The notes beneath the pieces were generated by a model. It made no database searches. It saw only the letters and a program-made list of their open reading frames with translations, and was not told where the DNA came from. Source: Cetorhinus maximus (Eukaryota). From it: a DNA stretch of 64,000 nucleotides. A program made the translations under genes and the position numbers. Of the stretch, positions 3,316 to 59,170 are shown in pieces. How positions within the stretch are numbered: the first letter of the stretch is position 1; each line of letters begins with the position of its first letter. The stretch lies in the NCBI RefSeq assembly GCF_964194155.1, contig NC_135888.1, positions 102,982,001 to 103,046,000 of the forward strand, in the 5' to 3' direction.

Positions 3316-4210
3316 TGTTATGACATGGCAGATAATGTGTGCCAGGCGGATCAAATCCATGAGGGAAACTTGATCATGCTATCACAATGGTTTTGCAATT
3401 TGTATTTATTTCAAGATGCATGTCCTGAATTCAGAAGTACGAAGTCCACCAAAATTTCAGAGATTTTTTTAAAAACTAAATTAACCATTTATGAACAAAA
3501 GAAAATATTTCAAGCACATACATAGGTCTGCAAATTACTACTATAATAACTCCTAAAACCCCTAATTAATCTGGCTTCCAGGTATACCCCCATTAAGGCA
3601 ACAGTAAAAAAAAAGTAGATTTTAAACAGACCCAGGCAAATCAACACAACACCCTGGACAGTAGCATTCAAAGTAACTTTTCCCAGCATCGGTTTTTGTA
3701 GACAGCAGGCTTAATGCACAAATACTGGAGGCTTCTCACACTTGTGGTAGATCTTACAATGCCTTCCCTGACAGAGCCTTATACTCCTTTATACACGTTT
3801 CTCCCTTTTAATGTAAATTCCATTGTTCCCATATGTCTTTGGAACTTTGCCTTTCTCATAATATAAATCTTTTCATGGTGCTAATATTGTCAGTAACCTT
3901 TTGGAAAAATAAACACAGAGCTTGGCCTAGCTTCTCTGGCTAGGTGTAAACACCCTACCATCTCTTTGAAATTCAAACTGCCCTGATTCATCTAAAAATG
4001 CAAATTCTCCTCACCCTACATTCTAAGGCTTCAGCCATGTTTATGTATTTAGCATTTCAAACCTAGCTTCTTTTGATGAGTCAAAGCCTCCAGACCAGCT
4101 GTCTCCAATTCAATTAAATCCCCCCCACACACACACACACACAGAAACTATCCAAACCCCATTATTAACCTACTTTTACAATAAATCACAATATTACAAG
4201 AATTATTATA
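3316..4210. mobile_element. Putative solo LTR, homologous to 59231-60230
   Basis: Both start TGTTATGA and share blocks (GGAAACTTG, TTTGCAATTTGTATTTATT, AATTAAAT..CACAC, AATATTACA). Contains (CA)n at ~4126-4143. Confidence 0.5.
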
Positions 4211-4379
4211 CTTTTGTGATTTTAACTGCATTTGTGTTACAAAATATAACAATATTTCTATACTTACTCGAAGCCATTGCAAAAGACCAAAGCCTCCTAC
4301 TTTCTGCAGGAATTGATTTAAAGTTGGGATTAAAACAAAAGTTGATTGCTCTGCAGGCACATATTTCCATTTTATTCGC

Positions 4380-4600
4380 TATGGATTCTATGTGTGCCAT
4401 TTCAGGTGGGCATCTTGCATCTGCAGCATGCTGTAAACAGCATAACTGGCTGATATTATACCGAATGAGTGCTTGAAAAGATTGTGGGTGGGGAAAAAGT
4501 TGCTAATTTGTCACCTTAAGTTAGTAGAGAACCTCCCAGCAGCCAATTGGGAGCCAACATTTTCTACATTACAAAGTGACTATACTTCAAATGTACTTCA
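4380..4600 (+). mobile_element. SINE with L2-type tail (Deu-SINE/SacSINE1-like), 5' part; split by the Penelope insertion and resuming at 10827-10895
   Basis: Removing 4601-10826 restores ...TTCAAATGTACTTCATTGGCTGTAAAGTGCTTTG...GAAAGGCGCTATGTAAATGCAAGTCTTTCTTT, a typical L2-derived SINE tail. Confidence 0.6.
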
Positions 4601-4663
4601 CAAAATAAAAACAGAATTACCTGGAAAAACTCAGCAAGCCTGGCAGCATCGGCGGAGAAGAAA

Positions 4664-4706
4664 TCAGTCAACGTTTCGAGCCCTCATGGCCCTTCGGCAG
4701 AACTGA
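4664..4706 (-). ncRNA. Minimal type I hammerhead ribozyme (pLTR of the inverted arm)
   Basis: Exact reverse complement of 7369-7411. Confidence 0.75.
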
Positions 4707-5053
4707 AGCATAGTTTCAACAAGGGAGAAATATAAATTGGTTTAAGGTGGGTGGGGGGGAAGAGACACATTGAGGGTGTGGTGTGAGCAGATAATCAAAA
4801 GATGTCAGAGACAAAAGGGTCAAAGAGGTGTTGAAGGTGGTGGTCTTTGTCTGAGAAAAGTGCTAATTAAGAATGGAAGACAGGATATTCAAAGTACAGC
4901 TCTAGTGGGGGTGGGGTGGAAAGACTAAAGGTTTTAGTTTTAGATTTAAAAATAATGGAAATAGGTGGGGAAAGAAGAATCTATATAAATTATTGAAAAA
5001 AAAGGCGGGTGGGGGGGGAAAAGAAACGGGGTGGGGATGGGGGGAGGGGGAGT

Positions 5054-7318
5054 TTAAGATCTAAAGTTGTTGAATTCAATATTCAGCCCAGAAGGCTGTA
5101 AAGTGCCTAGTCGGAAGATGAGGTGCTGTTCCTCCAGTTTGCGTTGGGCTTCACTGGAACAATGCAGCAAGCCAAGGACAGACATGTGGACAAGAGAACA
5201 GGGTGGAGTGTTAAAATGGCAAGCGACAGGGAGGTTTGAGTCTTTCTTGCGGACAGACCGCAGGTGTTCCGCAAAACGGTCGCCCAGTTTGCGTTTGGTC
5301 TCTCCAATGTAGAGGAGACCGCATTGGGAGCAACGAATGCAGTAGACTAAGTTAGGGGAAATGCAAGTGAAATGCTGCTTCACTTGAAAGGAGTGTTTGG
5401 GCCCTTGGACGGTGAGGAGAGAGGAAGTGAAGGGGCAGGTGTTGCATCTTCTGCGTGGGCATGGGGAGGTGCCATAAGTGGGGGTTGAGGAGTAGGGTGT
5501 AATGGAGGAGTGGACCAGGGTGTCCCGGAGGGAACGATCCCTACGGAATGCCGTCAAGGGGGGTGAAGGGAAGATGTGTTTGGTGGTGGCATCATGCTGG
5601 AGTTGGCGGAAATGGCGGAGGATGATCCTTTGAATGCGGAGGCTGGTGGGGTGATAAGTGAGGACAAGGGGGACCCTATCATGTTTCTGGGAAGGAGGAG
5701 AAGGCGTGAGGGAGGATGCGCGGGATATGGGCCGGACACGGTTGAGGGCCCTGTCAACGACCGTGGATGGAAAACCTCGGTTAAGGAAGAAGGAGGACAT
5801 GTCAGAGGAGCTGTTTTTGAAGGTAGCGTCATCAGAACAGATGCGACGGAGGCGAAGGAACTGAGAGAATGGGATGGAGTCTTTACAGGAAGCGGGGTGT
5901 GAGGAGCTGTAGTCGAGGTAGCTGTGGGAGTCGGAGGGCTTGTAATGGATATTGGTGGACAGTCTATCATCAGAAATTGAGACAGCGAGGTCAAGGAAGG
6001 GAAGAGAAGTGTCAGAGATGGACCATGTGAAGATGATGGAGGGGTGGAGATTGGAAGCAAAATTAATAAATTTTTCCAGGTCCCGACGAGAGCATGAAGC
6101 AGCACCGAAGTAATCATCGATGTACCGGAGAAAGAGTTGTGGGAGGGGGCCGGAGTAGGACTGGAATAAGGAATGTTCCACATACCCCATAAAGAGACAG
6201 GCATAGCTGGGGCCCATGCGGGTACCCATAGCCACACCTTTTATTTGGAGGAAGTGAGAGGAGCTAAAGGAGAAATTGTTCAGTGTGAGAACAAGTTCAG
6301 CCAGACGGAGGAGAGTCGTGGTGGATGGGGATTGTTGGGGCCTCTGTTCAAGGAAGAAGCTAAGGGCCCTCAGACCATCCTGGTGGGGGATGGAGGTGTA
6401 GAGGGATTGGACATCCATGGTGAAGAGGAAGCGGTTGGGGCCAGGGAACTGGAAATTGTTGATGTGACGTAAGGTGTCAGAGGAATCACGGATGTAGGTG
6501 GGAAGGGACTGGACAAGGGGAGAGAGAAGGGAGTCAAGATAACGAGAAATGAGTTCCGTGGGGCAGGAACAGGCTGACACGATCGGTCTGCCAGGACAGT
6601 TCTGTTTGTGGATTTTGGGTAGGAGGTAGAAGCGGGCCGTCCGAGGTTGGGCGACTATCAAGTTGGAAGCTGTGGGAGGAAGATCTCCAGAGGAGATGAG
6701 GTCAGTGACAGTCCTGGAAACAATGGCTTGATGTTCTGTGGTGGGGTCATGGTCCAGGGAGAGGTAGGAGGAAATGTCTGCGAGTTGACGCTCAGCCTCC
6801 GCGAGGTAGAGGTCAATGCGCCAGACAACAACAGTACCACCCTTGTCAGCGGGTTTGATGACAATGTTGGGGTTGGACCTGAGAGAACGGAGTGCAGTAA
6901 GTTCAGAGAGAGACAGATTAGAATGGGTGAGAGGAGCAGAGAAATTGAGACGGCTAATGTCACGCCGACTGTTCTCAATGAAAAGATCAAGAGAAGGTAA
7001 GAATCCAGAGGGAGGGGTCCAAGTGGAGGGAGAATATTGGAGGTGGGTAAAAGGATCCGTTGAACGGGGAGAGGACTCCTGCCCAAAGAAGTGAGCACGG
7101 AGACGAAGACGGCGGAAGAAGAGTTCAGCATCATGCCGAGCCCGAAATTCATTGAGATGAGGGCGTAAGGGTATGAAACTAAGTCCTTTGCTGAGCACTG
7201 AACGTTCAGCATCGGAGAGGGGAAGGTCAGGGGGTATAGTGAATACGCGGCTGGGGCTGGGATTGGAAGATGGGGTGAGGACGGAGGGACAAGCAGGGGT
7301 GGAGGGTCCCCGATGGGT
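5054..7318 (-). CDS. 5'-truncated Penelope-like RT/GIY-YIG ORF (inverted copy, uninterrupted frame)
   Basis: Matches residues ~164-917 of the 7559 ORF except for 5 substitutions. Lacks the native start. Confidence 0.85.
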   Translation of the reverse strand, partial: THRGPSTPACPSVLTPSSNPSPSRVFTIPPDLPLSDAERSVLSKGLSFIPLRPHLNEFRARHDAELFFRRLRLRAHFFGQESSPRSTDPFTHLQYSPSTWTPPSGFLPSLDLFIENSRRDISRLNFSAPLTHSNLSLSELTALRSLRSNPNIVIKPADKGGTVVVWRIDLYLAEAERQLADISSYLSLDHDPTTEHQAIVSRTVTDLISSGDLPPTASNLIVAQPRTARFYLLPKIHKQNCPGRPIVSACSCPTELISRYLDSLLSPLVQSLPTYIRDSSDTLRHINNFQFPGPNRFLFTMDVQSLYTSIPHQDGLRALSFFLEQRPQQSPSTTTLLRLAELVLTLNNFSFSSSHFLQIKGVAMGTRMGPSYACLFMGYVEHSLFQSYSGPLPQLFLRYIDDYFGAASCSRRDLEKFINFASNLHPSIIFTWSISDTSLPFLDLAVSISDDRLSTNIHYKPSDSHSYLDYSSSHPASCKDSIPFSQFLRLRRICSDDATFKNSSSDMSSFFLNRGFPSTVVDRALNRVRPISRASSLTPSPPSQKHDRVPLVLTYHPTSLRIQRIILRHFRQLQHDATTKHIFPSPPLTAFRRDRSLRDTLVHSSITPYSSTPTYGTSPCPRRRCNTCPFTSSLLTVQGPKHSFQVKQHFTCISPNLVYCIRCSQCGLLYIGETKRKLGDRFAEHLRSVRKKDSNLPVACHFNTPPCSLVHMSVLGLLHCSSEAQRKLEEQHLIFRLGTLQPSGLNIEFNNFRS

Positions 7319-7521
7319 CCCCACCCACCTTAAACCAATTTATATTTCTGCCTTGTTGAAACTATGCTTCAGTTCTGCCGAAGGGCCATGAGGGCTCGAA
7401 ACGTTGACTGATTTCTTCTCCGCCGATGCTGCCAGACTTGCTGAGTTTTTCCAGGTAATTCTGTTTTTATTTTGTTTTGGATTTCCAGCATCCGCAGTAG
7501 CTTTTAGCTTTTTGTTTTTAT
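7319..7521 (+). repeat. 5' pseudo-LTR (203-bp direct repeat of 10610-10812)
   Basis: Offset 3291 bp; 2 mismatches seen. Confidence 0.9.
7369..7411 (+). ncRNA. Minimal type I hammerhead ribozyme
   Basis: Stem I UCAGUU/GACUGA; core CUGCCGA(A); stem II GGGCC-AUGAG-GGCUC; GAAA; palindromic stem III AACGUU; predicted GUU cleavage after 7405. Confidence 0.8.
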
Positions 7522-7558
7522 CTTTGTGTTTGATTGACTGCCACCCCTCTTCAAAAAA

Positions 7559-10312
7559 ATGCCCTCTTGGAAGAAGTATGGTTCTGTCCTCCGACAGGAT
7601 TTCCGACTGTCTCTTCTGCCCTGCTCACCTTCATTGCTTTCCATTTCTCTCCTGGTGTTTGACAAGGTGTTTACTAAAACCCGCTTTCACAGCCATATCT
7701 CCTTTCTCAGTGACTGTCTCCGTCTCCGACTCACCCCACGTGGATTTCAACTGAAATTCCATCCCTCTTGTTTCGAACCCACCCAGGATTACAGGTATCT
7801 CCGGGACATAAAACGTTTCTCGGACTGCTGTTCCCGTCGCATTCTGAGATCCACACTCAGTGCCATGCGCCGCCATATGAACACACTCGACCTCTCCCTC
7901 CAGCAGCACCGCCGCACCCTTTTTCAAAGCTGCGCGTGCCCCCAGTTTCATTTTATTCTTCGCCTCATCCGTCGCCTCAACAAGAAACTTTTTCTCTTTC
8001 TCTCAAGTGCTAAGGAACGCAAGCTCCAACAACTCATCGACTCCAACACCCATCGGGGACCCTCCACCCCTGCTTGTCCCTCCGTCCTCACCCCATCTTC
8101 CAATCCCAGCCCCAGCCGCGTATTCACTATACCCCCTGACCTTCCCCTCTCCGATGCTGAACGTTCAGTGCTCAGCAAAGGACTTAGTTTCATACCCTTA
8201 CGCCCTCATCTCAATGAATTTCGGGCTCGGCATGATGCTGAACTCTTCTTCCGCCGTCTTCGTCTCCGTGCTCACTTCTTTGGGCAGGAGTCCTCTCCCC
8301 GTTCAACGGATCCTTTTACCCACCTCCAATATTCTCCCTCCACTTGGACCCCTCCCTCTGGATTCTTACCTTCTCTTGATCTTTTCATTGAGAACTGTCG
8401 GCGTGACATTAGCCGTCTCAATTTCTCTGCTCCTCTCACCCATTCTAATCTGTCTCTCTCTGAACTCACTGCACTCCGTTCTCTCAGGTCCAACCCCAAC
8501 ATTGTCATCAAACCCGCTGACAAGGGTGGTACTGTTGTTGTCTGGCGCATTGACCTCTACCTCGCGGAGGCTGAGCGTCAACTCGCAGACATTTCCTCCT
8601 ACCTCTCCCTGGACCATGACCCCACCACAGAACATCAAGCCATTGTTTCCAGGACTGTCACTGACCTCATCTCCTCTGGAGATCTTCCTCCCACAGCTTC
8701 CAACTTGATAGTCGCCCAACCTCGGACGGCCCGCTTCTACCTCCTACCCAAAATCCACAAACAGAACTGTCCTGGCAGACCGATCGTGTCAGCCTGTTCC
8801 TGCCCCACGGAACTCATTTCTCGTTATCTTGACTCCCTTCTCTCTCCCCTTGTCCAGTCCCTTCCCACCTACATCCGTGATTCCTCTGACACCTTACGTC
8901 ACATCAACAATTTCCAGTTCCCTGGCCCCAACCGCTTCCTCTTCACCATGGATGTCCAATCCCTCTACACCTCCATCCCCCACCAGGATGGTCTGAGGGC
9001 CCTTAGCTTCTTCCTTGAACAGAGGCCCCAACAATCCCCATCCACCACGACTCTCCTCCGTCTGGCTGAACTTGTTCTCACACTGAACAATTTCTCCTTT
9101 AGCTCCTCTCACTTCCTCCAAATAAAAGGTGTGGCTATGGGTACCCGCATGGGCCCCAGCTATGCCTGTCTCTTTATGGGGTATGTGGAACATTCCTTGT
9201 TCCAGTCCTACTCCGGCCCCCTCCCACAACTCTTTCTCCGGTACATCGATGATTACTTCGGTGCTGCTTCATGCTCTCGTCGGGACCTGGAAAAATTTAT
9301 TAATTTTGCTTCCAATCTCCACCCCTCCATCATCTTCACATGGTCCATCTCTGACACTTCTCTTCCCTTCCTTGACCTCTCTGTCTCAATTTCTGATGAT
9401 AGACTGTCCACAAATATCCATTACAAGCCTACCGACTCCCACAGCTACCTCGACTACAGCTCCTCACACCCCGCTTCCTGTAAAGACTCCATCCCATTCT
9501 CTCAGTTCCTTCGCCTCCGTCGCATCTGTTCTGATGACGCTACCTTCAAAAACAGCTCCTCTGACATGTCCTCCTTCTTCCTTAACCGAGGTTTTCCATC
9601 CACGGTCGTTGACAGGGCCCTCAACCGTGTCCGGCCCATATCCCGCGCATCCTCCCTCACGCCTTCTCCTCCTTCCCAGAAACATGATAGGGTCCCCCTT
9701 GTCCTCACTTATCACCCCACCAGCCTCCGCATTCAAAGGATCATCCTCCGCCATTTCCGCCAACTCCAGCATGATGCCACCACCAAACACATCTTCCCTT
9801 CACCCCCCTTGACGGCATTCCGTAGGGATCGTTCCCTCCGGGACACCCTGGTCCACTCCTCCATCACCCCCTACTCCTCAACCCCCACTTATGGCACCTC
9901 CCCATGCCCACGCAGAAGATGCAACACCTGCCCCTTCACTTCCTCTCTCCTCACCGTCCAAGGGCCCAAACACTCCTTTCAAGTGAAGCAGCATTTCACT
10001 TGCATTTCCCCTAACTTAGTCTACTGCATTCGTTGCTCCCAATGCGGTCTCCTCTACATTGGAGAGACCAAACGCAAACTGGGTGACCGTTTTGCGGAAC
10101 ACCTGCGGTCTGTCCGCAAGAAAGACCCAAACCTCCCTGTCGCTTGCCATTTTAACACTCCACCCTGTTCTCTTGCCCACATGTCTGTCCTTGGCTTGCT
10201 GCATTGTTCCAGTGAAGCCCAACGCAAACTGGAGGAACAGCACCTCATCTTCCGACTAGGCACTTTACAGCCTTCTGGGCTGAATATTGAATTCAACAAC
10301 TTTAGATCTTAA
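7559..10312 (+). CDS. Penelope-like element polyprotein: reverse transcriptase + Zn-finger + GIY-YIG endonuclease (917 aa, intact)
   Basis: IKPADKG, LLPKIHK..PGRPIVS, MDVQSLYT, GVAMGTRMGPSYA, RYIDD, LPFLD, CPRRRCNTC, VYCIRCSQCGLLYIGET..RFAEH. The CxxxxCxxC linker is typical of the Neptune clade. Confidence 0.95.
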   Translation: MPSWKKYGSVLRQDFRLSLLPCSPSLLSISLLVFDKVFTKTRFHSHISFLSDCLRLRLTPRGFQLKFHPSCFEPTQDYRYLRDIKRFSDCCSRRILRSTLSAMRRHMNTLDLSLQQHRRTLFQSCACPQFHFILRLIRRLNKKLFLFLSSAKERKLQQLIDSNTHRGPSTPACPSVLTPSSNPSPSRVFTIPPDLPLSDAERSVLSKGLSFIPLRPHLNEFRARHDAELFFRRLRLRAHFFGQESSPRSTDPFTHLQYSPSTWTPPSGFLPSLDLFIENCRRDISRLNFSAPLTHSNLSLSELTALRSLRSNPNIVIKPADKGGTVVVWRIDLYLAEAERQLADISSYLSLDHDPTTEHQAIVSRTVTDLISSGDLPPTASNLIVAQPRTARFYLLPKIHKQNCPGRPIVSACSCPTELISRYLDSLLSPLVQSLPTYIRDSSDTLRHINNFQFPGPNRFLFTMDVQSLYTSIPHQDGLRALSFFLEQRPQQSPSTTTLLRLAELVLTLNNFSFSSSHFLQIKGVAMGTRMGPSYACLFMGYVEHSLFQSYSGPLPQLFLRYIDDYFGAASCSRRDLEKFINFASNLHPSIIFTWSISDTSLPFLDLSVSISDDRLSTNIHYKPTDSHSYLDYSSSHPASCKDSIPFSQFLRLRRICSDDATFKNSSSDMSSFFLNRGFPSTVVDRALNRVRPISRASSLTPSPPSQKHDRVPLVLTYHPTSLRIQRIILRHFRQLQHDATTKHIFPSPPLTAFRRDRSLRDTLVHSSITPYSSTPTYGTSPCPRRRCNTCPFTSSLLTVQGPKHSFQVKQHFTCISPNLVYCIRCSQCGLLYIGETKRKLGDRFAEHLRSVRKKDPNLPVACHFNTPPCSLAHMSVLGLLHCSSEAQRKLEEQHLIFRLGTLQPSGLNIEFNNFRS

Positions 10313-10609
10313 ACTCCCCCTCCCCCCATCCCCACCCCGTTTCTTTTCCCCCCCCACCCGCCTTTTTTTTCAATAATTTATATAGATTCTTCTTTCCCCA
10401 CCTATTTCCATTATTTTTAAATCTAAAACTAAAACCTTTAGTCTTTCCACCCCACCCCCACTAGAGCTGTACTTTGAATATCCTGTCTTCCATTCTTAAT
10501 TAGCACTTTTCTCAGACAAAGACCACCACCTTCAACACCTCTTTGACCCTTTTGTCTCTGACATCTTTTGATTATCTGCTCACACCACACCCTCAATGTG
10601 TCTCTTCCC

Positions 10610-10812
10610 CCCCACCCACCTTAAACCAATTTATATTTCTCCCTTGTTGAAACTATGCTTCAGTTCTGCCGAAGGGCCATGAGGGCTCGAAACGTTGACT
10701 GATTTCTTCTCCGCCGATGCTGCCAGACTTGCTGAGTTTTTCCAGGTAATTCTGTTTTTATTTTGTTTTGGATTTCTAGCATCCGCAGTAGCTTTTAGCT
10801 TTTTGTTTTTAT
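10610..10812 (+). repeat. 3' pseudo-LTR
   Basis: Direct repeat of 7319-7521, ending in a T-rich tract next to the TSD. Confidence 0.9.
10660..10702 (+). ncRNA. Minimal type I hammerhead ribozyme (3' pLTR copy)
   Basis: Identical to 7369-7411. Confidence 0.8.
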
Positions 10813-11375
10813 TCAAATGTACTTCATTGGCTGTAAAGTGCTTTGAAAGGTTGTGCGGTCATGAAAGGCGCTATGTAAATGCAAGTCTTTCTTTCTCTCT
10901 AATAGGCTAACGTATCCGCTTCAAAACCAAAAGAGAAGGCATTTCTGACCTTTGTCTGTTAGTACAATCCACTTATGGGTGTCTACCTGCCTTACAGCTT
11001 TAGCTAAACTCCCAGTATGTGCTTTGCTTCCTCCTCTTGTAGTTAGTGTGTCTCAGAAATTGTGCACAATCTTTTCTCGCAAATCAACTTTTCATCTTGT
11101 CAGTCACAGCCGTTAAATTTGACAATGATTCAAACGTTCTCATCACTTTTATTTCGATGGGAATTCCAAAGGAGGGGAGACTCCAATAGATCTCTTGCCT
11201 TAATACTGAGGCCATAGCATCTGGAAGATTCTAATGCTGAATAGGTATGTGGAATAAAAGCTATAACAACAATATTTCTTCCTAACACACATTAAATATG
11301 TAAAGAAATTGCATCTCATTGTTTATATTCCTGCTGTAATATACTATTTATATATTATTAAATATTATTACAACA

Positions 11376-12313
11376 TGTTTTTTATTCATTCCCGGGATGT
11401 GGGCTTCGCTGGCTGGGCCAGCATTTATTGCCCATCCCTAATTGCCCTTGAGAAGGTGGTAGTGTGCTGCCTTCTTGAACCTCTGCAGTCCATGTGGTGT
11501 AGGTACACCCACAGTGCTGTTAGGAAGAGAGTTCCAGGATTTTGACCCAGCGACAGTGAAGGAACGGCGATATGATGTATTTCCAAATCAGGATGGTGAG
11601 TAACTTGGTGGGGGGAGCTTGCAGGTGGTGGTGTTCCCATGTGTCTGCTGCCCTTGTCCTTCTAGATGGTAGTGGTCGAGGGTTTGGAACGTACTCTCAA
11701 AGGAGCCTTGATGAATTTCTGCAGTGCACCTTGTAGATGGTACACATTGCTGCTACTGTGCGACAGTGGTGGAAGAAGTGAACGTTTGTGGATGTGGTAC
11801 CAATCAAGCGGGCTGCTTTGTCCTGGATGGTGTCAAGTTTCTTGAATGTTGATGGAGCTGCACTCATCCAGACAAGTGGGGAGTATTCCATCACACTCCT
11901 GACTTGTGCCTTGTAGATGGTGGACAGGATTGGGGGGGATCAGGAGCTGAGTTACTCGTCATAGAATTCCTAGCCTCTGAAATGCTCTTGTAGCCACAGT
12001 ATTTATATGGCTAGCCCAGTTCAGTTTCTGGTCAATGATAACTCCAAGATGTTGATAGTGCGGGGTTCAGTGATGGCAATGCCATTGAACATCAAGGGGT
12101 GATGGTTAGATTCTCTCTTGTTGGAGATGGTCATTGCCCGACACTTGTGTGGCGCAAATGTTACTCATCACTTGTCAGCCCAAGCCTGGATATATTCCAG
12201 GTCTTGCTGCATTTGGACATGGACTGCTTTGGTATCTGAGGAATCGCGAATGGTGCTGAACATTGTGCAAACATCAGCGAACATCCCCACTTCTGACTTC
12301 ATGATGGAAGGAA
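11376..12313 (-). mobile_element. 5'-truncated LINE (CR1/L2/Jockey-group; here 'family A'), RT C-terminus + 3'UTR + poly(A)
   Basis: Minus ORF MEYSPLVWMSAAPSTFKKLDTIQDKAARLIG. Homologous to 55980-56465 and 21425-22760. Confidence 0.8.
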
Positions 12314-12419
12314 GCCTTAGAAGGCTAACTTGAATTTAGTTGGCTTTTTAAGCATTCACTTAATTCTTCAGTCTCTGAAAAAAGTTTTTCATTAAATTTT
12401 ATTTATGAAAATGATATTT

Positions 12420-21424: not shown

Positions 21425-22790
21425 TTTTTTTTTCTTATTTATTATTCATTCATGGGACGTGGACATCGCTGGCAAGCCCGGCATTTATTGGCCATCCCTA
21501 ATTTCCCTTGAGAAAGATGGTAGTGAGCTGCCTTCCTGAACTGCTGCTGTCCATATGGTGTGGGTACACCCAGAGTGCTGTTAGGGAGGAAATTCCATCA
21601 TATTGTCCCAGCGGCAATGAAGAAACAGCTGATACATCCAAGTCAGTATGGTTTGTGACTTGGAGGGGAACTTGGAGGTGATAGTGTTCCCATTTGTCCA
21701 CTGTTCTTGTTGTTCTAGGCGGTAGAAGTCATGGATTTGGAAGGTACGCATTGTAGACACAGTGTGATGGTGGTGGAGCGAGTGGATGTATAAGGTGGTC
21801 GATGGGTGCCAATCAAAGCAGGTTGCTTTATCCCGGATGATGTTGAGTTTCTTAAGTATTGTTGGTGCTGCACTCATTCAGTCAAATGGGGCGTATTCCA
21901 TCTCACTCATGACTTGTGTCATGATGTTTGAAAGGCTTGGGGGAAATCGAGAGGCGAGTTATTCACAGTAGCATAGATAGCCTGTGAACTGCTCTTATAG
22001 CCACAATGTTTATGTGGCTGTTCCAGTTAAGTGAATGGTAACATTGATGCTGTGAATTCAGCATGGTAATCCCGGTACATTCAAAGAGTTGTGGCATAGA
22101 CTCTCTTTTGTTGGAGATGGTCATTACCTGGCACTTGTACGATGTGAATCTTACTTACCACTTATCAGCCCAAACACGAATGTTGTCCAGGTCTGCTGTA
22201 TGCAGAGGGACTGCTTCATTATCTGAGATGTTGTCAATGGAACTGTACACTTTGTGATTATCAGTAAACAGTCCTACTTCTCATCATATGATGGAGGGAA
22301 GATCATCGATGCAGAAGTTCCTTAGGAAAGTTGCTTCAATTATGTCCTGGGGCTGAGCTTTTTGACCTCCACCAACTACAACCATCTTTCGTTGTGTTAT
22401 GCACGGCTCCAACATTCCCATTGACTTCAAATTTACTAGGGTTCCTTGATGCTGCATTCAGTCAAATGCTGGCTTAATGTCTCTCTGCCTGATCCTATAT
22501 CTGTTTATCTCTCTCGTGTTGTTATTTATCTGAGTTTGCTGTACGCAAATTGGCTGCCTCCCTTCCTACACCTACCTTTGAAATTCAGCTTATTTGTTCA
22601 TGCCTTGACCAAGGCTGTAATGAGGTCTGGAATGAGTGGTCCTGGTGGACTCCAAATTAAGCATCAGTGAGCAAGTTATTGGTGTGTGCCACTTGATAGC
22701 ACTGTCGACAACACTCTCCATAATTTTGCTGATGATTGAGAGTTGTCTGATGTGGCGGTAATTGGCCAGAATGGATTTGTCCTACTTTTC
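21425..22790 (-). mobile_element. Decayed family-A LINE
   Basis: Same 3' tail and MSAAPTILKKLNIIRDKA motif as 11376-12313. Confidence 0.75.
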
Positions 22791-23024: not shown

Positions 23025-23570
23025 AGTAACATTGAAAGATTTATGGCTTGGAAAGAGGCCATTTGGCCCATCCTATCCATGCTGGCCAAAAAGAGCTCTC
23101 CAGCCTAATCCCACCTTGCAGCTCTTGGTCTGTAACCCTGTAGGTTACAGCACCTCAACTGTATATCCAAGTGTTTTTAAATGGGAATGAGGATTTCTGC
23201 CTCTAGCACCCTTTCAGGTATGAGTTCCAGACCCTCGGCACCTTCTGTGTGAAAACAATTCCTTCTCAACTAAATACAGAGATAAAAACAAAAAACTACT
23301 GCGGATGCTGGAAATCCAAAACAAAAACAGAATTACCTGGAAAAACTCAGCAGGTCTGGCAGCATCGGCGGAGGACTCAGCATGAGGACTCGAAACATCG
23401 ACTCTTTTCTTCTCCGCCGATGCTGCCAGACTTGCTGAGTTTTTCCAGGTAATTCTGTTTTTGTGTTCCTTCTCAACTACCTGCTAATCCTTCTACCAAG
23501 TATTTTAAATTCATTCTCCTGGTTATTGACTTCTCTGATAAGGGAAATAGGTCCTTCCTATTCACTGTAT
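23025..23570 (-). mobile_element. CR1 3' fragment
   Basis: GAGGCCATTTGGCCCATC..CCAATCCCA-like..GAGTTCCAGACCC pattern shared with the other CR1 tails in the window. Confidence 0.6.
23273..23465. mobile_element. Palindromic Penelope pLTR mini-element with 14-bp TSD
   Basis: TTCCTTCTCAACTA at 23259-23272 and 23466-23479. Arms 23321-23373 / 23412-23464 (1 mismatch). Near-identical to pLTR 7415-7530. Half-hammerhead CATGAGGACTCGAAACATCGAC in the loop. Confidence 0.9.
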
Positions 23571-26500
23571 CACCAGTGAGGTGTTCAGAATCATAGTGCT
23601 TTGTTACATCCTACACAACAATGCACAGCAAAGAAGACATTAGGCAGAGGATGATGAATACATTCATCAGGTATCTTCTGATGAGGAAAACATTGAAGAG
23701 GGGGAGGAGGATTATGAAGATGGGGCCTCGTAGGTTCAATTAATTATTCTGACTTGAACAAATAACAAATAAAAACCACCACCTGCAACCAAGCACTTAT
23801 CCCACCCCCCTTGCACAAAACAGTCCTTCAAACATGCAGACACCCATTGCATATCAGTCCAATGGATCCTGTCATGTATTGACATTCATCATGAAGCAAG
23901 TGGAAGGACAAGCTGACATTCCTGTTGCAATAATTGGTAAGAAGTGGACACGTTGCTAAGAATTACATTAAATATAGTGTCAAATAAAAAAGGAAACTTA
24001 ACAACATAAAATTTTGATGAGCACCCATGTGCATACCCTTGGTGAATTACAATTGATTTAACTGAGGCTCCTGACTGCTTCTTGTGATGTATGCTGTGCA
24101 GAGGTATGCTGCTCAGATCCAAGTCCTGATCACTAAGATGCTATTGGTAGACACCCTCTGGGTTTCAGGGCCCCTGAGTACCCTGCCAAAGTCTGGTCCA
24201 CCTGCCCCTGTGCAGACGCAAACCACTCATTTGGAGAGGAGCAGGATGTCAGGTATTGGCTGAGGTGGAAAGGAGCGATGGGTGAGAAGTAAAAGCGCTT
24301 TGAGTGGAGTTCCCATGATCCTTTTCACCATCATGCCTCTCCTGGGATAGCACCCACCATTCCAGATCAGCTTGCTGAAAATCAGTGATGTCTTGTAACG
24401 AGGGTGAATGAGTTATCTGTAATCCTGTTTAAGGTGGCAGACATGGTGGCATCTAAACTTTGCATGGCTCTGCAAATGACTTGCAAGGAATTATTTGAGA
24501 ACTGCTTGAAACCTCATGGAGGCAGCCACTTGCAATTATCAGCAACACCAATTCACCAATGTGTTGAGTTGGACTCAACCCCCCCTTCCCACCCCAACGT
24601 TTTTGCTATTGTGGAGAGTGTGCGTGGCACATCTGATAGGACCTTGAAAATTGCTAATGCACCTATAGCATTTTCCTTTTTAATGCTAGTCCCTGGGATT
24701 CAGCAACTGTGTTAAGCCGAGCAGAGTTTGGAGAGGATTGCTCTGACCCCTGCAACCCTGCATGAACCCTCCATAGCTATTCCTGCCACCAGTATCTGCT
24801 CAAACTCATTAGTGAGGTGTGGATCACCAGATGAAAACCAAATCAGCTCTCTGACTGGACCCAATTGAAGTGTGAACGTTTGTGCTGGTGCATGGCTCCA
24901 TGTCCTGTGCTGGTGCACTCTGAGAAGGAGGTCCTCTGAGGATTCAACCCCATGCATCTCTAGTGTTTCTTGCTTTAGGCATTAAGATCCTTCAAGACTA
25001 TGAATTAGTTGTGGTTAAGTAATATTCTCAGCAATCACCATACTCAATCCTCTCATAGTTCAAATTTTGATGAAATAAAGTCAACATGTATTTGTGATTC
25101 TGTCATCACTCCTACACTACATAAACTGCAGCGGTTCAAGAACGCAGCTCACCATCACCTTCTCAAGGGCTATTAGGGATGGGCAATAAATGCTGGCCCA
25201 GCCAGCGACACCACATCCCATGAACAAATTTTTAAAAATCAGCTAACTGTGAGTTCTCAGTCTCCATCTCTGATGGAGAAGAATGCAGAGGTGCCATTTA
25301 TTCCTAGGGCTTCCTGCTCTGCATCTGTAAGTTGCACAATTTGTGAAGGACCACCTCTAGTCCTTTCCTTTCTCTCTCCCTTGTGTTTTGCACTTCCTTC
25401 TGCTCAAATGGTGAAATATCAGACCAGCGAGTGATTGAAGGTTCACCCGATGGCTGCAGTGCCTACAGTGAGGATGACAGGCAGACAGAGGCACTGCACT
25501 ACAGGAGAGTTGGGGTTAGTGGCAGTTGTGGATAGATGCACTGGGAGGTGAGAAAGTGCATTGAATATGAAGGATGGGTGGCCGTGAGGAGTGATGTGAT
25601 GGAGCATGCTTGGCAAAACAAAAAGGACGTGGGGGTGGGGGGTTGGTTTACCCCACCCTGACACCCTTTCCCTGCTCAGAATGCAGGTGAATCTGCAAAT
25701 GGCCTCATTTTCCCTGACCCAGTTAGATCTGTGAACTGCTTCCTCCACTGCATCGAAGGCAGAAACGCAATGCTCCCATTGCTCACGTCCTCAGCACCTC
25801 CAACTTTACTGCCATGTAGCAGGTTTCTTTCTCCCAGTGCTGGGAATGTGCTGGGGAAAAGTATGTGCTTCCTGTTGCTGACTGCACCCAGGAGGATTTC
25901 AAGGGAAGTGTCAATGAACTTGGATGCTGCCCTCACTCTTTGTGAATCCATCATAAGCACCTCCTTACATAATGGACTTCAGATGCAGGGCACATCAACC
26001 ACTGAGCATTTTAGAGATTCAAAATCTGGAAAGAAAAATGTAATCGTGTAATTTAGCCAAAATTGAACTATCTGTCCCAATGATTTTAATTTTGTGGTTT
26101 GTGCACACAATTCCTCCCTCCCCCACTTCAAACCCACCTTTTTATTAACTGCCTGTAGTGTAGGAAGAGACATGGCGATGGACTGAAGGGTAATAAGCAA
26201 TATCAATGCAAAGCATTGCTCCAAGTTGAATTATGTATTGTACCATTTCCAAATAGAATTAGCATAAATTGATTTGTTGTGCAAACATAGCGGTTCTCAT
26301 ATCGGCAAAATATAAAGGCAAACGATACTTTAATTTAGGAAATATCCTTTTTTTAAACAGCAGTTGCTTGTGCTCCATCTGAGCCTGTAGGATGTGTAGA
26401 CTTTCAACAGCAACACTAATCAGAATATAACCCAATTGAGACCCTGGATTAGAGCGACAGGTGTTGGAACAGATAAGGACAGAAGCTGCACATAAGCCTG

Positions 26501-34364: not shown

Positions 34365-35260
34365 TGAAACATAGAATCATGCAGCACAGGAGGCCATTCA
34401 GCCCAATGTGCTTATGTTAGCTCTTTGATAGAGCTAATTAATCCCATCTCCATGCTCTTTTCCTGTAGCTCTGCAGCTTTTTCATCCTCAAATATTTTTC
34501 TAATTCTCTTTCGAAAGTTACAACTGAATCTGCTTCCACAAACAGTGCATTCCAGGTCACAACTCGCTGTGTAATAAAATGTTTCCTCATATCGCCACTG
34601 TTCTTGCAAATCACCTTAAATTTGACTTAAAACAAAAGCAGAACACATTGGATGCTGGAAATCTGAAATAAAAACAGAAAATGCTGGAAATACTCAGCAG
34701 ATCTGGCAGCATCTGTGGAGAGAAAAACAGAGATAACATTTCAGATCAAGGACCTTTCGTCAGAGCACCTTAAATTTGTGAACTTTACTTGCTGACCTTT
34801 CTGGCGTTAAAAATAGTTTCTCCTTATTGCCTCTATAAAGCCCATTTATAATTTTGAACACCTCTATCAAATCACCTCAATCTTTTCTGCTCTAAGGAGA
34901 ACAACCCCACTTTCTCCAGTCTCTCCACATCCCTGGTATCATTCTATTAAATCTCTTCTGCATTCTGTTCAAGTCCTTGACAGCCTTCCTAAAGTATGGT
35001 GCCAGAATTGAACTCAATACTCCAGCTAAGGCCTAACGAGTGTTGTTTAAAGGTTCAGCATAACCTCTTGGCTTTGTATTCTATTTTAAATAAATAAAGC
35101 CAAGGATCTCATCTTTTTAATAACAGTCTCAACTTGTCCTGTCACCGTCTAAGGTTCGTGTGCATACACCCACAACCCATCCACTCCCAGCTGCCTTTGC
35201 TCCTGCATGCTCTTTAAAATTGTACCATTTAATTCATATTCCTTCTCCTCATTCTCTTTG
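34365..35260 (-). mobile_element. CR1 3' fragment
   Basis: CATAGAATCAT tail, GGAGGCCATTCAGCCC and antisense RT C-terminus. Confidence 0.7.
34625..34765 (-). mobile_element. Solo Penelope pLTR with hammerhead core, 13-bp TSD
   Basis: CACCTTAAATTTG at 34612-34624 and 34766-34778. Minus strand begins CT-CTGACGA-AAGGTC-CTT-GATCT-GAAA-TGTT. Confidence 0.85.
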
Positions 35261-49200: not shown

Positions 49201-50118
49201 GTTGTCACAGCTCTACTTGCTTTGCAAACTCTTCAGCCTTCTCTAATGTTAAATCCTCTTTGGTTTGCAAAATGTCTGACAGCACATCCTCAAGCCCGTC
49301 GAATACGATGTGGTCACGAATTAACTCATGCTTTAAAGCACTGACTACAACTGCTGGCCAGTCAATACAGATCATTAACAAATGAATCAGTGGATTCACC
49401 AGCCTTTCGCTCCTTTCATTGAATCTCACCCGTTCAATGATCAGATTCTTCTTGGGGCTGAAGTAATTATTGAAGGCCCTCAGAATCTCCTTGTAGGATT
49501 CCAATGTCTTCTTGACTCCTTGTCTTGCCAGGTCATCATCAGCTAAGCCCCCAGCTGCATTTTGAAGCATACTGACCTTGTGTTTTTGTGCCTTTTCTTG
49601 TAAGCCCGATGCTGTTCGGTACCTTTCAAACTGTCTCCTCCAGAGCTCTGACCATTGTCTTTGTTGTGGACCCTCATTGCTTTGGAAGGGCTGTGGAAGA
49701 GATTGTGGCTGTTCATTGGCTGTTGACATCCTGAGTGGTTCACTGTCCCCTACCAAGATAGGTTCTATTTTGTCCTTCTTTGTTGCGAAGTTGAGCTGTT
49801 CCAAGGTCTTCACCAGTGGGTTACCAATCAGTGGTCTTAGTTTCTTAAACCGCCACCTCCAGTGCTGCCACCATGTTTTGATGAGGTTTTACTTACTCTG
49901 TGACTGACTTGGAGATAGTCAGTTTATAGTTTTTCTTGAAACTACTTATTTACACAATTTACTAAGACCTCATGGTAAGTACATTGTTCTCTGGGCTTAA
50001 ACTGTTCTGTGTCTTGCTCTCTTGGAGCCCCTTAATCACCTGACTCTGATGTTATGCTTACATCATTACCTAATTAACATAACCATTAACCCTTTACACA
50101 AAGAACATGTTATTCTGA

Positions 50119-50302
50119 TACAAAAAAAATACTGCAGATGCTGGAAATCTGAAATAAAAACAGAAAATGCTGGAAACGTTCAACAGGTCGGGTAGCATCC
50201 ACAATTTTGATGTAGGGTCATCGACTTAAAACATTAACTCTGTTTCTCTCCACAGATGCTGCCTTACCTTCTGAGTATTTCCAGCATTTTCTGTTTTTAT
50301 TT
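50119..50302. mobile_element. Palindromic Penelope pLTR mini-element with 12-bp TSD (older subfamily)
   Basis: ATGTTATTCTGA at 50107-50118 and 50303-50314; arms ~50152-50199 / 50255-50302; decayed hammerhead TTGATGTAGGGTCATCGACTTAAAACATT between them. Confidence 0.85.
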
Positions 50303-50857
50303 ATGTTATTCTGAAATGGGTTATAGAATGCACACAATTTAAAATTTCTCAGGCGCAGTGTAATGAAAGTGTCTCTGATGCCTTTTGGTACATTGTCTAG
50401 AGAAAGGAAAGAATGAACAAAGGAGAAAAAGCCAAGAATGAATCGATAGAGATAAAGTAATACAATATAGTATTGGACCATATTATTGGCTTAATTTTCT
50501 ATAAGTATTTAAATAAGTAAACACCAAGAACAGTTTAGATGCAATCTGTACAGAAAAGTCTGATCAGTATTTGGAAACATTTCTGTAATTAGAAGCTCCC
50601 TCTTTACAGGCGTAGTATCTTCATGGAAACTGACAATTCATTGCTTGTTGACACAAAACATAATATGGCGATGTAAATCATGTTGAGACACATCATCATA
50701 TCACTTGTATGTGATATTACTGCAATGAAAGTGCCTCACCCTTCTAGCTGTTGTCCCTTTCAGGGTGAAGGGGCTTGTGGAAAAAAAACACTCAGAAAGA
50801 CAATATCCCTTTAAATCAGTGGCATTCTGTCATAAAGTTTTGCAGTAATCAAACTAA

Positions 50858-54915: not shown

Positions 54916-56468
54916 GGGGAGGCAGTGGCAGTGGCGGTGGCCTAGTGGTATTGTCGCCCGACTAGTAATCCAGAGACCTGGGTTTGAATCCCACCATGGC
55001 AGATGGTGGAATTTGAATCCAATAAAAAAAATCTGGAATTAAATGTCCAATGATGATCATGAAACCATTATAGGAAAAACCCATCTGGTTCAATAATCTG
55101 CTGTCCTTACCTGGCCTGGCCTGCATGTAACTCCAGACCCACAGCAATGTGGTTGACTCTTAAATGGCCTAGCAAGCCATTCAGTTGTATCAAATCACTA
55201 AAAACAAGTCAACAAGGAATGAAACCAGATGGACCACCTGACATTGACCCAGAAATGACAATGACAAAGTCAACCCTGCAAAGTCCTCCTTACTCTGGGG
55301 GCTTGTGGCAAAATTGGGAGTGTTGTCTCACAGATCACAAGTCTTCAGCCAAATTGTTTCACTCCATGTGACATCAAGAAATGGCTGAAGGTACTGGATA
55401 CTGCAAAGGCTATGGGCCCTGATGATATTCTGGCAATAGTACTGAAGACTTGTGCTCCAGAACTTGCTGTGCCTGTAACCAAGCTGTTCCAGTACAGCTA
55501 CAACACTGGCATCTACCCAGCAATGTGGAAAATTGCCCAGGTATGTCCTATACTCAAAAAGCAGGACAAATCCAACCTGGCCAATTACTGCCCCATCAGC
55601 CTACTCTTAATCACCAATAAAGTGATGGAAGGGGTCATTAACAATGCCATCAAGCAGCACTTGCTTAGCCCAGCTTGGGTTTCACCATGGCCACTCAGCT
55701 TTTGACATCATTACAGCCTTGGTTCAAACATGGACAAAAAAGCTGACCTCCAGATGCAAGGTGAGAGTGACTGCCCTTCACATCAAGACAGCATTTGACT
55801 AAGTGTGGCATCAAGGAGCCCTAGCAAAACTGCCGTCACTGGGAATTGGGGGGGAAACTCTCCGCTGGTTGGAGTCATACCTGGCACACAGGAAGATGGT
55901 TGTGGTTGTTGGAGGTCAGTCATCTCAGTTCCAGGGCATCATTGCAGGAGATCCTCAGGGTGTCCTAGGCCCAACCATCTTCAAATGCTTCATCAATGAC
56001 CTTCCTTCCATCATAAGATCAAAAGTGGGGATGTTCACTGATGATTGCACAATGTTCAGCACCATTTGATACTCCTCAGATACTGGAGCAGTCCATGTCC
56101 AAATGCAGCAAGACCTGGACAATATCCAAGCTTGGGCTGTAAAGTAACATTCGTGCCACACAAGTGCCAGGCAATGACCATCTCCAACAAGAGAGAACTT
56201 AACCATTGCCCCTTGACATTCAATGGCATTACCATTGCTGAATCCCCCACTATCAACAACCTGGGGGCTACCACTGATGAGAAACTGAACTGGACTAGCC
56301 ATAAAAATACTGTGGCTACAAGAGCAGGCCAGAGGTGAGGAATCCTGCAGCAAGTAACTCACCTCACGACTCCCCAAAGCCTGTCCACCATCTACAAGGC
56401 ACAAATCAGGAGTGTAATGGAATACTCTCCACTTGCCTGGATGAGTGCAGCTCCAACAGCACTCATGA
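54916..56468 (+). mobile_element. Family-A LINE with tRNA-like 5' head, internally deleted
   Basis: A box TGGCCTAGTGG 54938-54948, B box GGTTTGAATCC 54981-54991; start of an APE-like frame (WGLVAKLG) ~55293; RT motifs GPDDI..KTCAPELA, WHQGALAKL, QG-VLGPTIF, FTDD. Confidence 0.75.
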
Positions 56469-56639
56469 AGCTTGGGAGAGTATTTTTATGATAGTGATCA
56501 TAATTTAGATTTAACGTAGCTATGAAAAAGGACAAGCCAAGAGTAAAATTAGGGAAAGTTAGGGAAATTTTAAATTGGGGAAAAGCCAATTTTACTAAGC
56601 TGAGATGTAATTTGACAAAAAAAGACTGCAAATAGCTAC

Positions 56640-56900
56640 TCAGAGGAATCGGGAATGTAGGTGGAAAGAGACTGGACAAGGGGAGAGAGAATGGAGTCAA
56701 GATAGGAAGAAATGAGTTCCGTGGGGCAGGAACAGGCTGACACAATGGGTCTACCGGGACAGTCCTGTTTGTGGATTTTGGGAAGGAGGTAGATGGAGAC
56801 TATGAGGTTGGAAGCTGTGGAAGGAAGATCTCCAGAGGCGATGAAGTCAGTGACAGTCCTGGAAACAATGGCTTGATGTTCGGTGGTGGGGTTGTGGTCC
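56640..56900 (-). mobile_element. Diverged internal fragment of the Neptune element
   Basis: Colinear with 6477-6755, with scattered substitutions and a small deletion. Confidence 0.8.
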
Positions 56901-59170
56901 GGGGGCGGGTGTGGGGGGGGGGAGGTAGGAGTGTGGAGAGGGGTAGGACTAAGGGTGGAGGAAGAAATAAAGGTGGAGGAAGGAGTCAGGAAGGGGGGAA
57001 GGAGTAAGGGTGTCTGAAGGAGTCAGGAAGGGGGAAGAAGTAAGGCTGGAGGAAGGAGTTGGGAGGGGGTAAGGACTAAGGGTGATGGAAGAAATAAGAA
57101 TGTCTGAAGAAGTCAGGAAGGGTGAAGAACTAAGCGTGGGGTTGGTGGGGGGGTGGGGGGAGGGGGGGGAGGACTAAGGTGAGGGGGGAGTCTGCAGGGG
57201 GGAAGGGATTCCTGGGGGAAGGGGTTCAAGGGGTTCCAAGGGGGGAGGGGTCAATGGGGGGGATGTCCAGGTGAATGTGCAAGGGAGGGCTCTGATGAGT
57301 CCTGAACTGCCTCCTGGGGAGCGAACTGAGGGTGTGCGTGTTATGAGGGAAGGGTGAGACTGACTGAGGGCAGAGTGAGGCAGTAAGGTTGGAGGGTGAT
57401 GGTTCGATGGTAGAAGAGACGGCAATGGTCGTTGGTAGGGACTTGGAGTCAGACACGGACCCTGGGGGTGGGAAGGAGGAGGTCAGGGAGGTTAATGTGG
57501 ATGGGGGTGGGATTTTCAGGAAGGAAGGGAATGTGCACATTCACCTGGACATCCCCGAAAGAAAAGGGTTGTGGCCGGTATTGGGAGGTGGAAGGTGATG
57601 CCGGGGGGGGGGGCCAACAGTGATGGTGGAAAGAAAATAGGTGAGTGGGGGGGAGGGGAAAGGATGGGGGAGTGAATGAAACCACCACTATGCTGGCTAA
57701 GTCAAAAGTAAAGTGAGAGTCGTGGTGGGCGAGATCAGATACTGCATGGGAGTGTGATCAATGGGTGTGTGGAGATGCAGGTCAGCACAGATGGACAACT
57801 GAAAATGTACCCGGCAGGCAGTGTTGAAAATGCTCAGGACATTGAGGTGAATGTGATACGGGAAGGATCCATATGCATGGGAGAATGCTTACAAGAGGCT
57901 CTGAAAGGCTCTACCACTCACATACACTTCTCCCTCCAGAATCACTCGTTGGCCAGCTGCTCCCTCTGCGGTGATAGGGGATGAGGTTGAGCGAGTCACA
58001 GGCAAAGGGGACTCGGAGGGAGACAACATCCTCAGATTCCTGAGTGGATGACCCAGGGGTGTCCAGCTGCCGCTCCTCTTCCCTTTGAGTGCCCAGGGGC
58101 CCCAGCCTGACTCCTTGAGGGGAAGGAGCTCCTGGAAGGACATTGACGTGCCCTTTTTCCCTCCCATGTCGTCACTGCAGGAACTCACCCATGGCTCCCG
58201 CAATGGGGTGCAGGTTTGCACACATCTCCGTGTTCTGCCGGACCAGGGTCTTCGTGGCGTCTGCCATCCTTCCCATGGAGGCCTCTATATGCGTACATGT
58301 GGGCACCACTTCATCAGGGAACAGACAGACTCACTCCTCCAACTTGTGAGCCACTCTGTTGAGGGTTTCCAACAGCTCTGCATAATGTTTCCATGCCTTC
58401 TTCTGACTGTCCAGGATGAGTTGGAAGGCCAAATCCAGAGGCATGCCATCTGACTTGGACCCCACAGATGCCTCTTCCCCAGCAGTCCTTTAAGTGCTGG
58501 AGAACTCAACTGAACCTGCCTCTTCCTGCTATGGATACATGTCTGTGTACCAGCAGGTTGTAAACCTGAGCCTGCTCTAGATCTCAGTCCCACTGAGGTG
58601 TGTGTTTCTGTGCTGGTGGAGGGTGTGGGTAAGCACTGTGAAGGGTCTTCCAAGCTGCTTATTTCCAGCTCTTCCATGGAGGAGGTGAGGACCATAAGAC
58701 ATAAGACCATAAGACATAGGAGCAGAAATCAGGACAATCGGCCCATCAAGTCTGCTCCGCCATTCAATCATGGCTGATAAGTTTCTCAACCCCATTCTCC
58801 CGCCTTCTCCCCATAACCTTTGTTCCCCTAACCAATCAAGAACCTATCTATCTCGGTCTTAAATACACTCAATGACCTGGCCTCCACAGCCTTCTGTGGC
58901 AATGAATTCCATAGATTCACCACTCTCTGGCTAAAGAAGTGAGGACATGGACTGGGGCAGAGGGATTGGCTGGTCACTTGGCAGAGCTCCCTGTGAATCA
59001 AAGTAGAGATAGTTAGTGCATGGCAGCAGAGCCAAAAGCAGGAGAGGGAGCCTTCACAGTTGCATTGAGAGAGGGATGGTGCAGTGCGGGATCCACAGGT
59101 GGGTGTTTGTCACCAGAACAGATCCAGCGTCACTCCCAGCTCTCCAGTGAATGTTCATTCTCCCCAACAT
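56900..59170 (-). mobile_element. G-rich low-complexity tract plus decayed Harbinger Myb/SANT gene region
   Basis: Repeated GGAGT(A/C)AGG..GAAGG units at 56930-57130. Broken ORFs SSMEELEISSLEDPSQCLPTPSTSTETHTSVG. Confidence 0.45.
58693..58938 (-). mobile_element. Young 5'-truncated CR1 tail with (CATAAGA)3 terminal repeat and 8-bp TSD
   Basis: GTGAGGAC at 58685-58692 and 58939-58946. Confidence 0.8.

Follow-up and report, generated by a model that had tools for sequence, protein, structure and literature searches.

How can a retroelement come to lie in a genome with a 3' end at each of its outer edges, inside one target site duplication (TSD)? The question is raised by a Penelope-like element (PLE) at positions 4586-10826 of a 64,000-nt stretch of the Cetorhinus maximus genome (positions 102,982,001 to 103,046,000 of contig NC_135888.1, assembly GCF_964194155.1), hereafter called the window. 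Our analyses indicate that the locus is a genuine, young, single-event insertion of an endonuclease-bearing PLE in head-to-head form. The locus itself is ordinary, with a known architecture that is the majority form among the sampled copies of its own family. With regard to how this form arises, we consider it probable that, in one insertion, the two strands of a staggered cut (~14 nt) each prime a reverse transcript, at a different one of two start sites on RNA from the same source, and that the resulting complementary DNAs (cDNAs) are then end-joined.

A single insertion with two unequal 3' ends

The sequence TTCAAATGTACTTCA is found at 4586-4600 and again at 10812-10826, identical at 15 of 15 positions and not extendable, and these are its only two occurrences in the window. 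One base at each boundary (A4600 and T10812) is also compatible with the element sequence; hence, the cut stagger at the locus was probably 14 nt, the modal TSD length of the family (28 of 43 loci, see below). The inverted arm, 4600-7318, is the reverse complement of 8048-10766 over 2,719 nt, with 13 substitutions and no gaps. The forward arm is a full copy, composed of an open reading frame (ORF) between two pseudo-long terminal repeats (pLTRs), and its reverse transcriptase (RT) and GIY-YIG endonuclease frame is open. The 5' and 3' pLTRs (7319-7520 and 10610-10811) differ at two sites, and the arms enclose a 729-nt spacer that is not mirrored. The youth of the insertion is indicated by the 0.5% divergence of its arms, the flank being ~6% different from that of organism B. 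These data bear out the initial annotation, made from the sequence alone, which had placed an inverted 2.7-kb segment and a pLTR-ORF-pLTR unit within one TSD.

Removal of the insert restores the tail of a host repeat, which that annotation had taken for a SINE and which may instead be the 3' end of a LINE. The loose-end consensus of this repeat, obtained on the right flank in four of four runs, shows that members of the host-repeat family run upstream of 10812 as ...CCTACATTACAACAGTGACTACAC, which matches window positions 4562-4585. Another copy of the element (L099-L100; G000:C5, ~139.80 Mb) lies in the same host repeat tail, within ~5 nt of the target position of the window. This position is possibly a favoured target (1 of 64 sampled loci).

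Both outer ends are indeed outward-facing 3' ends, as annotated, but they are not equivalent. The left outer end corresponds to 10766, with the right end extending 45 nt further, and the 45-nt tail (10767-10811) is present at the right outer end and absent from the left. Because the left arm lacks this tail, the two are different ends of the element. This had been overlooked, although it is the most informative feature of the locus.

The initial annotation had proposed a check with reads, for which eight runs were used. At the left edge, contig X15 (record 10), from the same species, is identical to 4167-4625 and reaches 25 nt into the element, which is below the 31-nt bridging standard; its sample is possibly the same as that of the assembly. 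For the central and right junctions, there is no spanning piece among those listed for the eight runs, one of which, a targeted-capture run of another individual (X20), has no coverage of the unique flank. In organism B, contig X5 (record 26) can be aligned to the left flank as far as 4600 (435 nt, 27 differences), beyond which four more letters do not fit the element; this is weakly consistent with an empty site.

The head-to-head layout in the family

A search with the 5' ORF region yielded 1,863 first-look candidates in the assembly, whereas a query with the 3' UTR (10330-10600), in which common words were skipped, gave no match. The sample comprised all 32 other distinct loci from this query (20 kb each) and 34 loci from two further searches (10 and 24 loci, 10 kb each, one of 30 kb). 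After setting aside L156-158 (a copy within a host tandem duplication) and L161-162 (an assembly gap), 64 loci were classed; they are the best-scoring young copies and not a random draw. The head-to-head class accounts for 43 of them (22 of the 31 loci in one part of the sample, 21 of the 33 in the other), and the remaining 21 are single-ended or direct-tandem copies. This is the count of two-ended versus tandem copies that the initial annotation had suggested for the whole genome, run here on these 64 loci, and it does not support the rarity implied there: the layout is described as the typical Penelope structure in PMC3846280 and PMC8557442, and it is the majority class in this family. Inverted arms of 0.15-8 kb are common.

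All 43 head-to-head loci have one TSD, of 13 nt in 3 loci, 14 nt in 28, 15 nt in 9 and 16 nt in 3, which supports at the level of the family the claim of a single integration event. The GC content of the TSDs of family loci is 29%. One locus (L103-L104; G000:C3, ~208.32 Mb) carries 1,468 nt of non-element sequence between its head-to-head arms, either captured DNA or a later insertion; it was counted as head-to-head, as one 14-nt TSD brackets both arms.

The ends of these loci follow a strict rule. In 43 of 43, exactly one tailed end is paired with one tail-less end, the former located at 10800-10811 and the latter at 10718-10773, mostly at 10756-10770 (P = 2e-13 if ends were chosen independently). 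The single-ended and direct-tandem copies use either site, with 10 ending at the tailed site and 11 at the tail-less site; thus, each of the two sites primes alone. Ten of these 21 copies have no TSD of at least 9 nt, nine have TSDs of 9-12 nt and two have TSDs of 14-15 nt with extra bases. Short or absent TSDs, as in 19 of the 21, are expected if only one nick was used, keeping in mind that some TSD-less copies could have a second arm beyond the fetched stretch. No rule was found for the order of arm lengths in the head-to-head loci, the tailed arm reaching further in 15, the tail-less arm in 26 and neither in 2 (P = 0.12).

Arms as copies of RNA from one source

We compared the arms of 44 head-to-head loci, the window included. 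The tail-less arm contains more than 20 nt absent from the tailed arm in 21 loci, and the reverse holds in 14. Neither arm is therefore always a copy of the other, and the excess of the tail-less arm in 21 of 44 loci indicates that both arms are best read as RNA-templated, with one nick priming each.

The arms of one locus usually share one source copy. Their distance is smaller than the median between-locus arm distance in 42 of the 44 loci; variants private to the locus are common to both arms in 17, and lineage variants are common to both in 33. At least one lineage-discordant site was found between arms in 14 loci, with clearly several only in L142 (six) and L144 (four). The six lineage-marking sites of L142 make it a likely two-template event or a recombinant. 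In L109-L110 (G000:C2, ~96.60 Mb), identical internal rearrangements are present in both arms (9111 to 9255; 9366 to 9461 to 9556), and a rearranged template was therefore copied into both. Other loci (L073-L074, L093-L094 and L095-L096) have single arms of 2.0-2.5 units whose variants are common to the units (e.g. five shared and one differing in 3,196 nt), as expected from repeated copying of one unit-length template. Over 31 pairs of tandem units, 40 sites are shared and 23 differ.

In the window, the arms share the minority alleles 8591A, 9049G, 9102G, 10490C and 10670C, and two double variants of the inverted arm have no second occurrence in the assembly. The allele 9049G is found at 23 places in the assembly and 9102G at 13, the fetched ones being mostly older copies (87-96% identical). 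No source copy with the haplotype of the window was found among the 20 loci fetched (10 of the 23 and 10 of the 13 places, with the arms of the window accounting for four of the 20). An origin of the two arms from different sublineages was largely rejected on account of the private double variants, the five shared minority alleles and the lack of a matching haplotype among the fetched loci.

Central joins

The arms of the window meet in a blunt join, and GGGTCCCC is present at 7304-7311 and again across the join at 7315-7322. The join has one exact match in the assembly; it was therefore made at this insertion, and its inheritance from a source copy was rejected. The repeat noted in the initial annotation is thus real, but it is weak evidence on how the ends were joined: an 8-nt repeat of this kind is found in 1.2% of 2,403 simulated blunt joins and in one of the six observed ones. 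Its fit to synthesis-dependent end joining is suggestive only.

In the 27 insert-free joins, microhomology averages 1.6 nt, as opposed to 0.6 nt for simulated joins (P = 2e-6). The inserts in the joins of L073, L093, L107, L115, L123 and L131 copy adjacent sequence. Both features, short microhomology and locally copied inserts, are what microhomology-mediated or synthesis-dependent end joining leaves behind (PMC2943611). The join of the window resembles the loop-out form of microhomology-mediated end joining that depends on synthesis (SD-MMEJ), an apparent blunt join within a direct repeat, with GGGT as the primer repeat and CCCC as the microhomology repeat. That form is described in the same source for chromosomal breaks, and RT slippage on RNA would leave the same scar here. 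Two loci have exact palindromic joins, with both arms stopping at 10157 in L146 and both at 9777, with one extra base, in L148.

A two-nick priming model and its alternatives

In the proposed route, the GIY-YIG domain would nick both strands ~14 nt apart. The right nick would prime at the distal start site (10811) and be extended by 3,493 nt, corresponding to one unit and 202 nt of the next, and the left nick would prime at the proximal site (10766) and be extended by 2,719 nt. The 3' ends of the cDNAs would be joined by microhomology or synthesis-dependent end joining; in the window, GGGT may have slipped back 11 nt, added CCCC and paired with GGGG of the other cDNA. Gap filling would then yield the TSD. 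By analogy, the agent is likely to be a protein dimer that engages the two start sites. The initial annotation had already proposed that each nick primes its own cDNA. Support for this comes from the family, and the proposal agrees with the nicking and extension of both strands reported in vitro for a PLE protein of an anole (PMC11167929). In that work, the tail is delimited by two neighbouring internal sites at which reverse transcription starts, the protein is predicted to dimerize and the later steps of insertion are left open.

A number of points weigh against this model. The tail-less arm of the window is wholly contained in the tailed arm, and the locus itself does not discriminate between readings; two-nick priming is probably right, and the family supports it better than this single locus does. 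The family survey in turn rests on best-scoring young copies rather than a random draw. The element studied in vitro belongs to Poseidon, whereas the present one looks Neptune/Nematis-like by its linker (see below). In the window, the inverted arm has 11 arm-only changes versus 2 in the other arm (P = 0.022, post hoc), and 7 of 12 coding differences between the arms are synonymous versus 29% expected (P = 0.034, post hoc). Variants shared between arms could stem from later gene conversion or assembly polishing. The discordant sites of L142 and L144 suggest that some events were two-template or recombined. Finally, the palindromes of L146 and L148 are accounted for equally well by fold-back and by a pair of RTs that each ran to the end of the same RNA.

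We put forward more tentatively, as a possibility that falls somewhat short of an even chance, a stricter form of two-nick priming in which asymmetric twin priming is obligate. The dimer would dock on the two start sites of a single RNA, one per nick, and both RTs would copy the same unit-length, possibly circular, molecule. If true, this would explain the strict pairing of tailed and tail-less ends (43 of 43) together with the full 14-nt TSD, and likewise the variants shared between arms and tandem units, the arms longer than two units and the exact palindromes. Retrotransposition by this route would also need no dedicated step for priming the second strand. Circular RNA has been proposed to serve as template when copies exceed one unit (PMC4209133).

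A fold-back of the first cDNA appears unlikely, although this locus taken alone would fit it. One nick would prime the tailed cDNA, whose 3' end would self-anneal at 8048 and be copied back to 10766, and the endonuclease would resolve the hairpin and join it to the second nick. These ingredients, self-priming and endonuclease-mediated resolution, are suggested in PMC3846280 and PMC8557442. The containment of the inverted arm of the window in the forward arm, the rare alleles common to both arms, the perfect palindromes of L146 and L148 and the near-perfect ones of L079, L168 and L144 are all in line with a fold-back, and the microhomology at the joins fits it equally. In contrast, in 21 of 44 loci the tail-less arm includes sequence that the tailed arm does not have, which argues against it, since a fold-back copy could not exceed the tailed first cDNA, and the tail-less site, at which 11 of 21 single-ended copies end, is a priming site and not only a trimming site.

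It is quite improbable that both nicks primed on two RNAs from different source copies. The unequal arm-only changes of the window, its synonymous differences and the lineage-discordant arms of L142 speak for two sources, but the two double variants of the inverted arm are unique to this locus, its haplotype is found in none of the 20 fetched loci and the arms have five minority alleles in common. Two sequential insertions at the same spot have no specific point in their favour and are very hard to reconcile with the single TSD, the lack of a second duplication at the join and the same layout at 43 other loci in unrelated targets. An assembly fold-back artefact, suggested by the unspanned central and right junctions and by the trouble that long inverted repeats cause to assemblers, has a similarly negligible probability given the 13 differences between the arms, the non-mirrored spacer, the family-specific unequal ends, the unique flanks that both bear the TSD and, within the limits given above, contig X15.

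Comparison with known systems

The typical Penelope structure is described as an ORF with two pLTRs, an adjacent inverted pLTR, a TSD and a one-sided tail, head-to-head being the most frequent inverted form, and the inverted arrangement is explained there by self-priming (PMC3846280). Pen2a_Av of Adineta vaga, from the same source, is like the present locus in having its ORF between two pLTRs, an adjoining inverted copy, one TSD and a tail at one end. Its inverted part is a pLTR of 181 bp, its TSD 9 bp and its tail 31 bp long, in contrast with 2.7 kb, 14-15 bp and 45 nt here. The general PLE layout (PMC8557442, Fig. 2) similarly includes a partial tandem, an inverted 5'-truncated copy next to the upstream pLTR and a tail of 30-40 bp. 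That source ascribes the tail to endonuclease-mediated resolution and calls it 'often' one-sided, whereas the 45-nt tail of this family is one-sided in 43 of 43 loci.

PAc, the Poseidon element of Anolis carolinensis studied in vitro, shares with the present element two RT start sites that bound the tail and AT-rich targets; it has a hammerhead in the pLTR, where the present element has a hammerhead-like motif (PMC11167929). The ORF of PAc starts within the hammerhead, whereas that of the present element starts 38 nt after the tail. The available text of PMC11167929 does not derive head-to-head insertions from its two-strand results, and how PLEs make inverted structures and the tail is still called undefined in the literature considered here. 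We found no explicit two-nick model of head-to-head PLEs in the open literature; older closed-access papers on PLEs may hold one. The strict one-tail rule, the single-ended copies that use either site and the arm containment test connect the genomic layout with the two start sites found in vitro in 2024. The counts over the family are of modest importance, and the family, being young, abundant and endowed with open frames, provides usable experimental material.

Twin priming of L1 elements offers a further comparison. In that process, both target strands prime cDNA, and a 5' inversion results within one TSD, with a microhomology join; annealing of the second primer is internal, so that no sequence is doubled. 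The present locus is different, in that each arm begins at the 3' end and a stretch of 2,719 nt is present twice. Moreover, it has no poly(A), and its endonuclease is of the GIY-YIG rather than the APE type.

Encoded protein, pLTRs and hammerhead-like motif

The frame 7538-10312 is open over 924 codons, with 917 residues from the first ATG at 7559. As in other endonuclease-bearing PLEs, this single ORF combines an RT with a C-terminal GIY-YIG domain. Pfam matches were obtained to RVT_1 (residues 413-577, E = 1e-6) and, short of the curated cut-off, to GIY-YIG (residues 827-862, E = 4.5e-4), and the motifs DKG (residue 328 of the frame), GVAMG and YIDD are present. The VY-CxxC-YIG endonuclease motif VYCIRCSQCGLLYIG at residues 828-842 has two cysteines between GIY and YIG, followed downstream by histidines that would complete a CCHH motif. 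Between RT and endonuclease, residues 790-798 form a C-X4-C-X2-C linker (CPRRRCNTC). A CX2-5CxxC linker at this place marks Neptune/Nematis rather than Penelope/Poseidon (PMC8557442), and the element looks like Neptune/Nematis in this respect; Poseidon lacks such a linker.

The pLTRs of the family arise from partial tandems, with upstream partial units of 0-4,949 nt preceding 37 full units. They harbour a minimal hammerhead-like motif (Table 1) with the core CUG-C-N-GA instead of CUGANGA (10666-10672). All 110 sampled arms have a C at position 6; at position 7, 66 have T and 44 have C, and helix I is likewise variable (U-G/U-A). A search against Rfam yielded no family at E <= 1, and the pLTR folds no better than shuffled sequences (z = 0.71). 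A6C is a described natural hammerhead variant that favours Mn2+ (PMC7151607). Its fixation throughout the family of an active element is noteworthy for a predicted hammerhead.

Table 1. Features of the head-to-head insertion and its surroundings (window coordinates)
Feature	Position	Strand	Remarks
Host repeat 3'-tail fragment, upstream part	4555-4599	+	Resumes at 10827-10894
Left TSD copy	4586-4600	+	Identical over 15 nt; stagger likely 14 nt, with one base shared
Inverted 5'-truncated arm	4600-7318	-	2,719 nt, counterpart of 8048-10766; ends outwards at tail-less (proximal) start site
Further hammerhead-like copy	4663-4706	-	Minimal hammerhead layout by eye and fold
Stop-free RT and GIY-YIG frame of inverted arm	5054-7318	-	Lacks ~163 N-terminal codons; frame 5054-7339, 761 residues
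Central join 7318/7319	7304-7322	+	Blunt, within GGGTCCCC direct repeat; unique in assembly
5' pLTR	7319-7520	+	202 nt including tail 7476-7520; 3' end of upstream partial unit
Further hammerhead-like copy	7369-7412	+	Minimal hammerhead layout by eye and fold
ORF	7559-10312	+	917 residues, RT and GIY-YIG
3' pLTR with tail	10610-10811	+	
Minimal type-I hammerhead-like motif	10660-10703	+	Core CUG-C-N-GA (A6C) ... GAAA-CG-UU
45-nt tail between the two end sites	10767-10811	+	Right outer end only
Right TSD copy	10812-10826	+	
Host repeat 3'-tail fragment, downstream part	10827-10894	+	

Other copies in the window

The window contains additional PLE remnants. An older head-to-head stump of ~200 bp from the same pLTR family is found at 23259-23479, with a 14-bp TSD, TTCCTTCTCAACTA (23259 and 23466), and a tail on its left end only. 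A head-to-head stump of a related pLTR (50107-50314) has a 12-bp TSD (50107 and 50303) and also a tail on the left only, and a single-ended pLTR stump of a related family (34612-34778) has a 13-bp TSD (34612 and 34766). At 56640-56904 lies an older remnant from this ORF family, with 85% identity to 8607-8889, and a short tandem repeat (56921-57138) comes after it. Members of another dispersed repeat family, 71-89% alike, are located at 341-468, 11378-12314, 21438-22314, 25111-25224 and 55991-56474; the copy at 11378-12314 starts ~550 bp to the right of the insertion.

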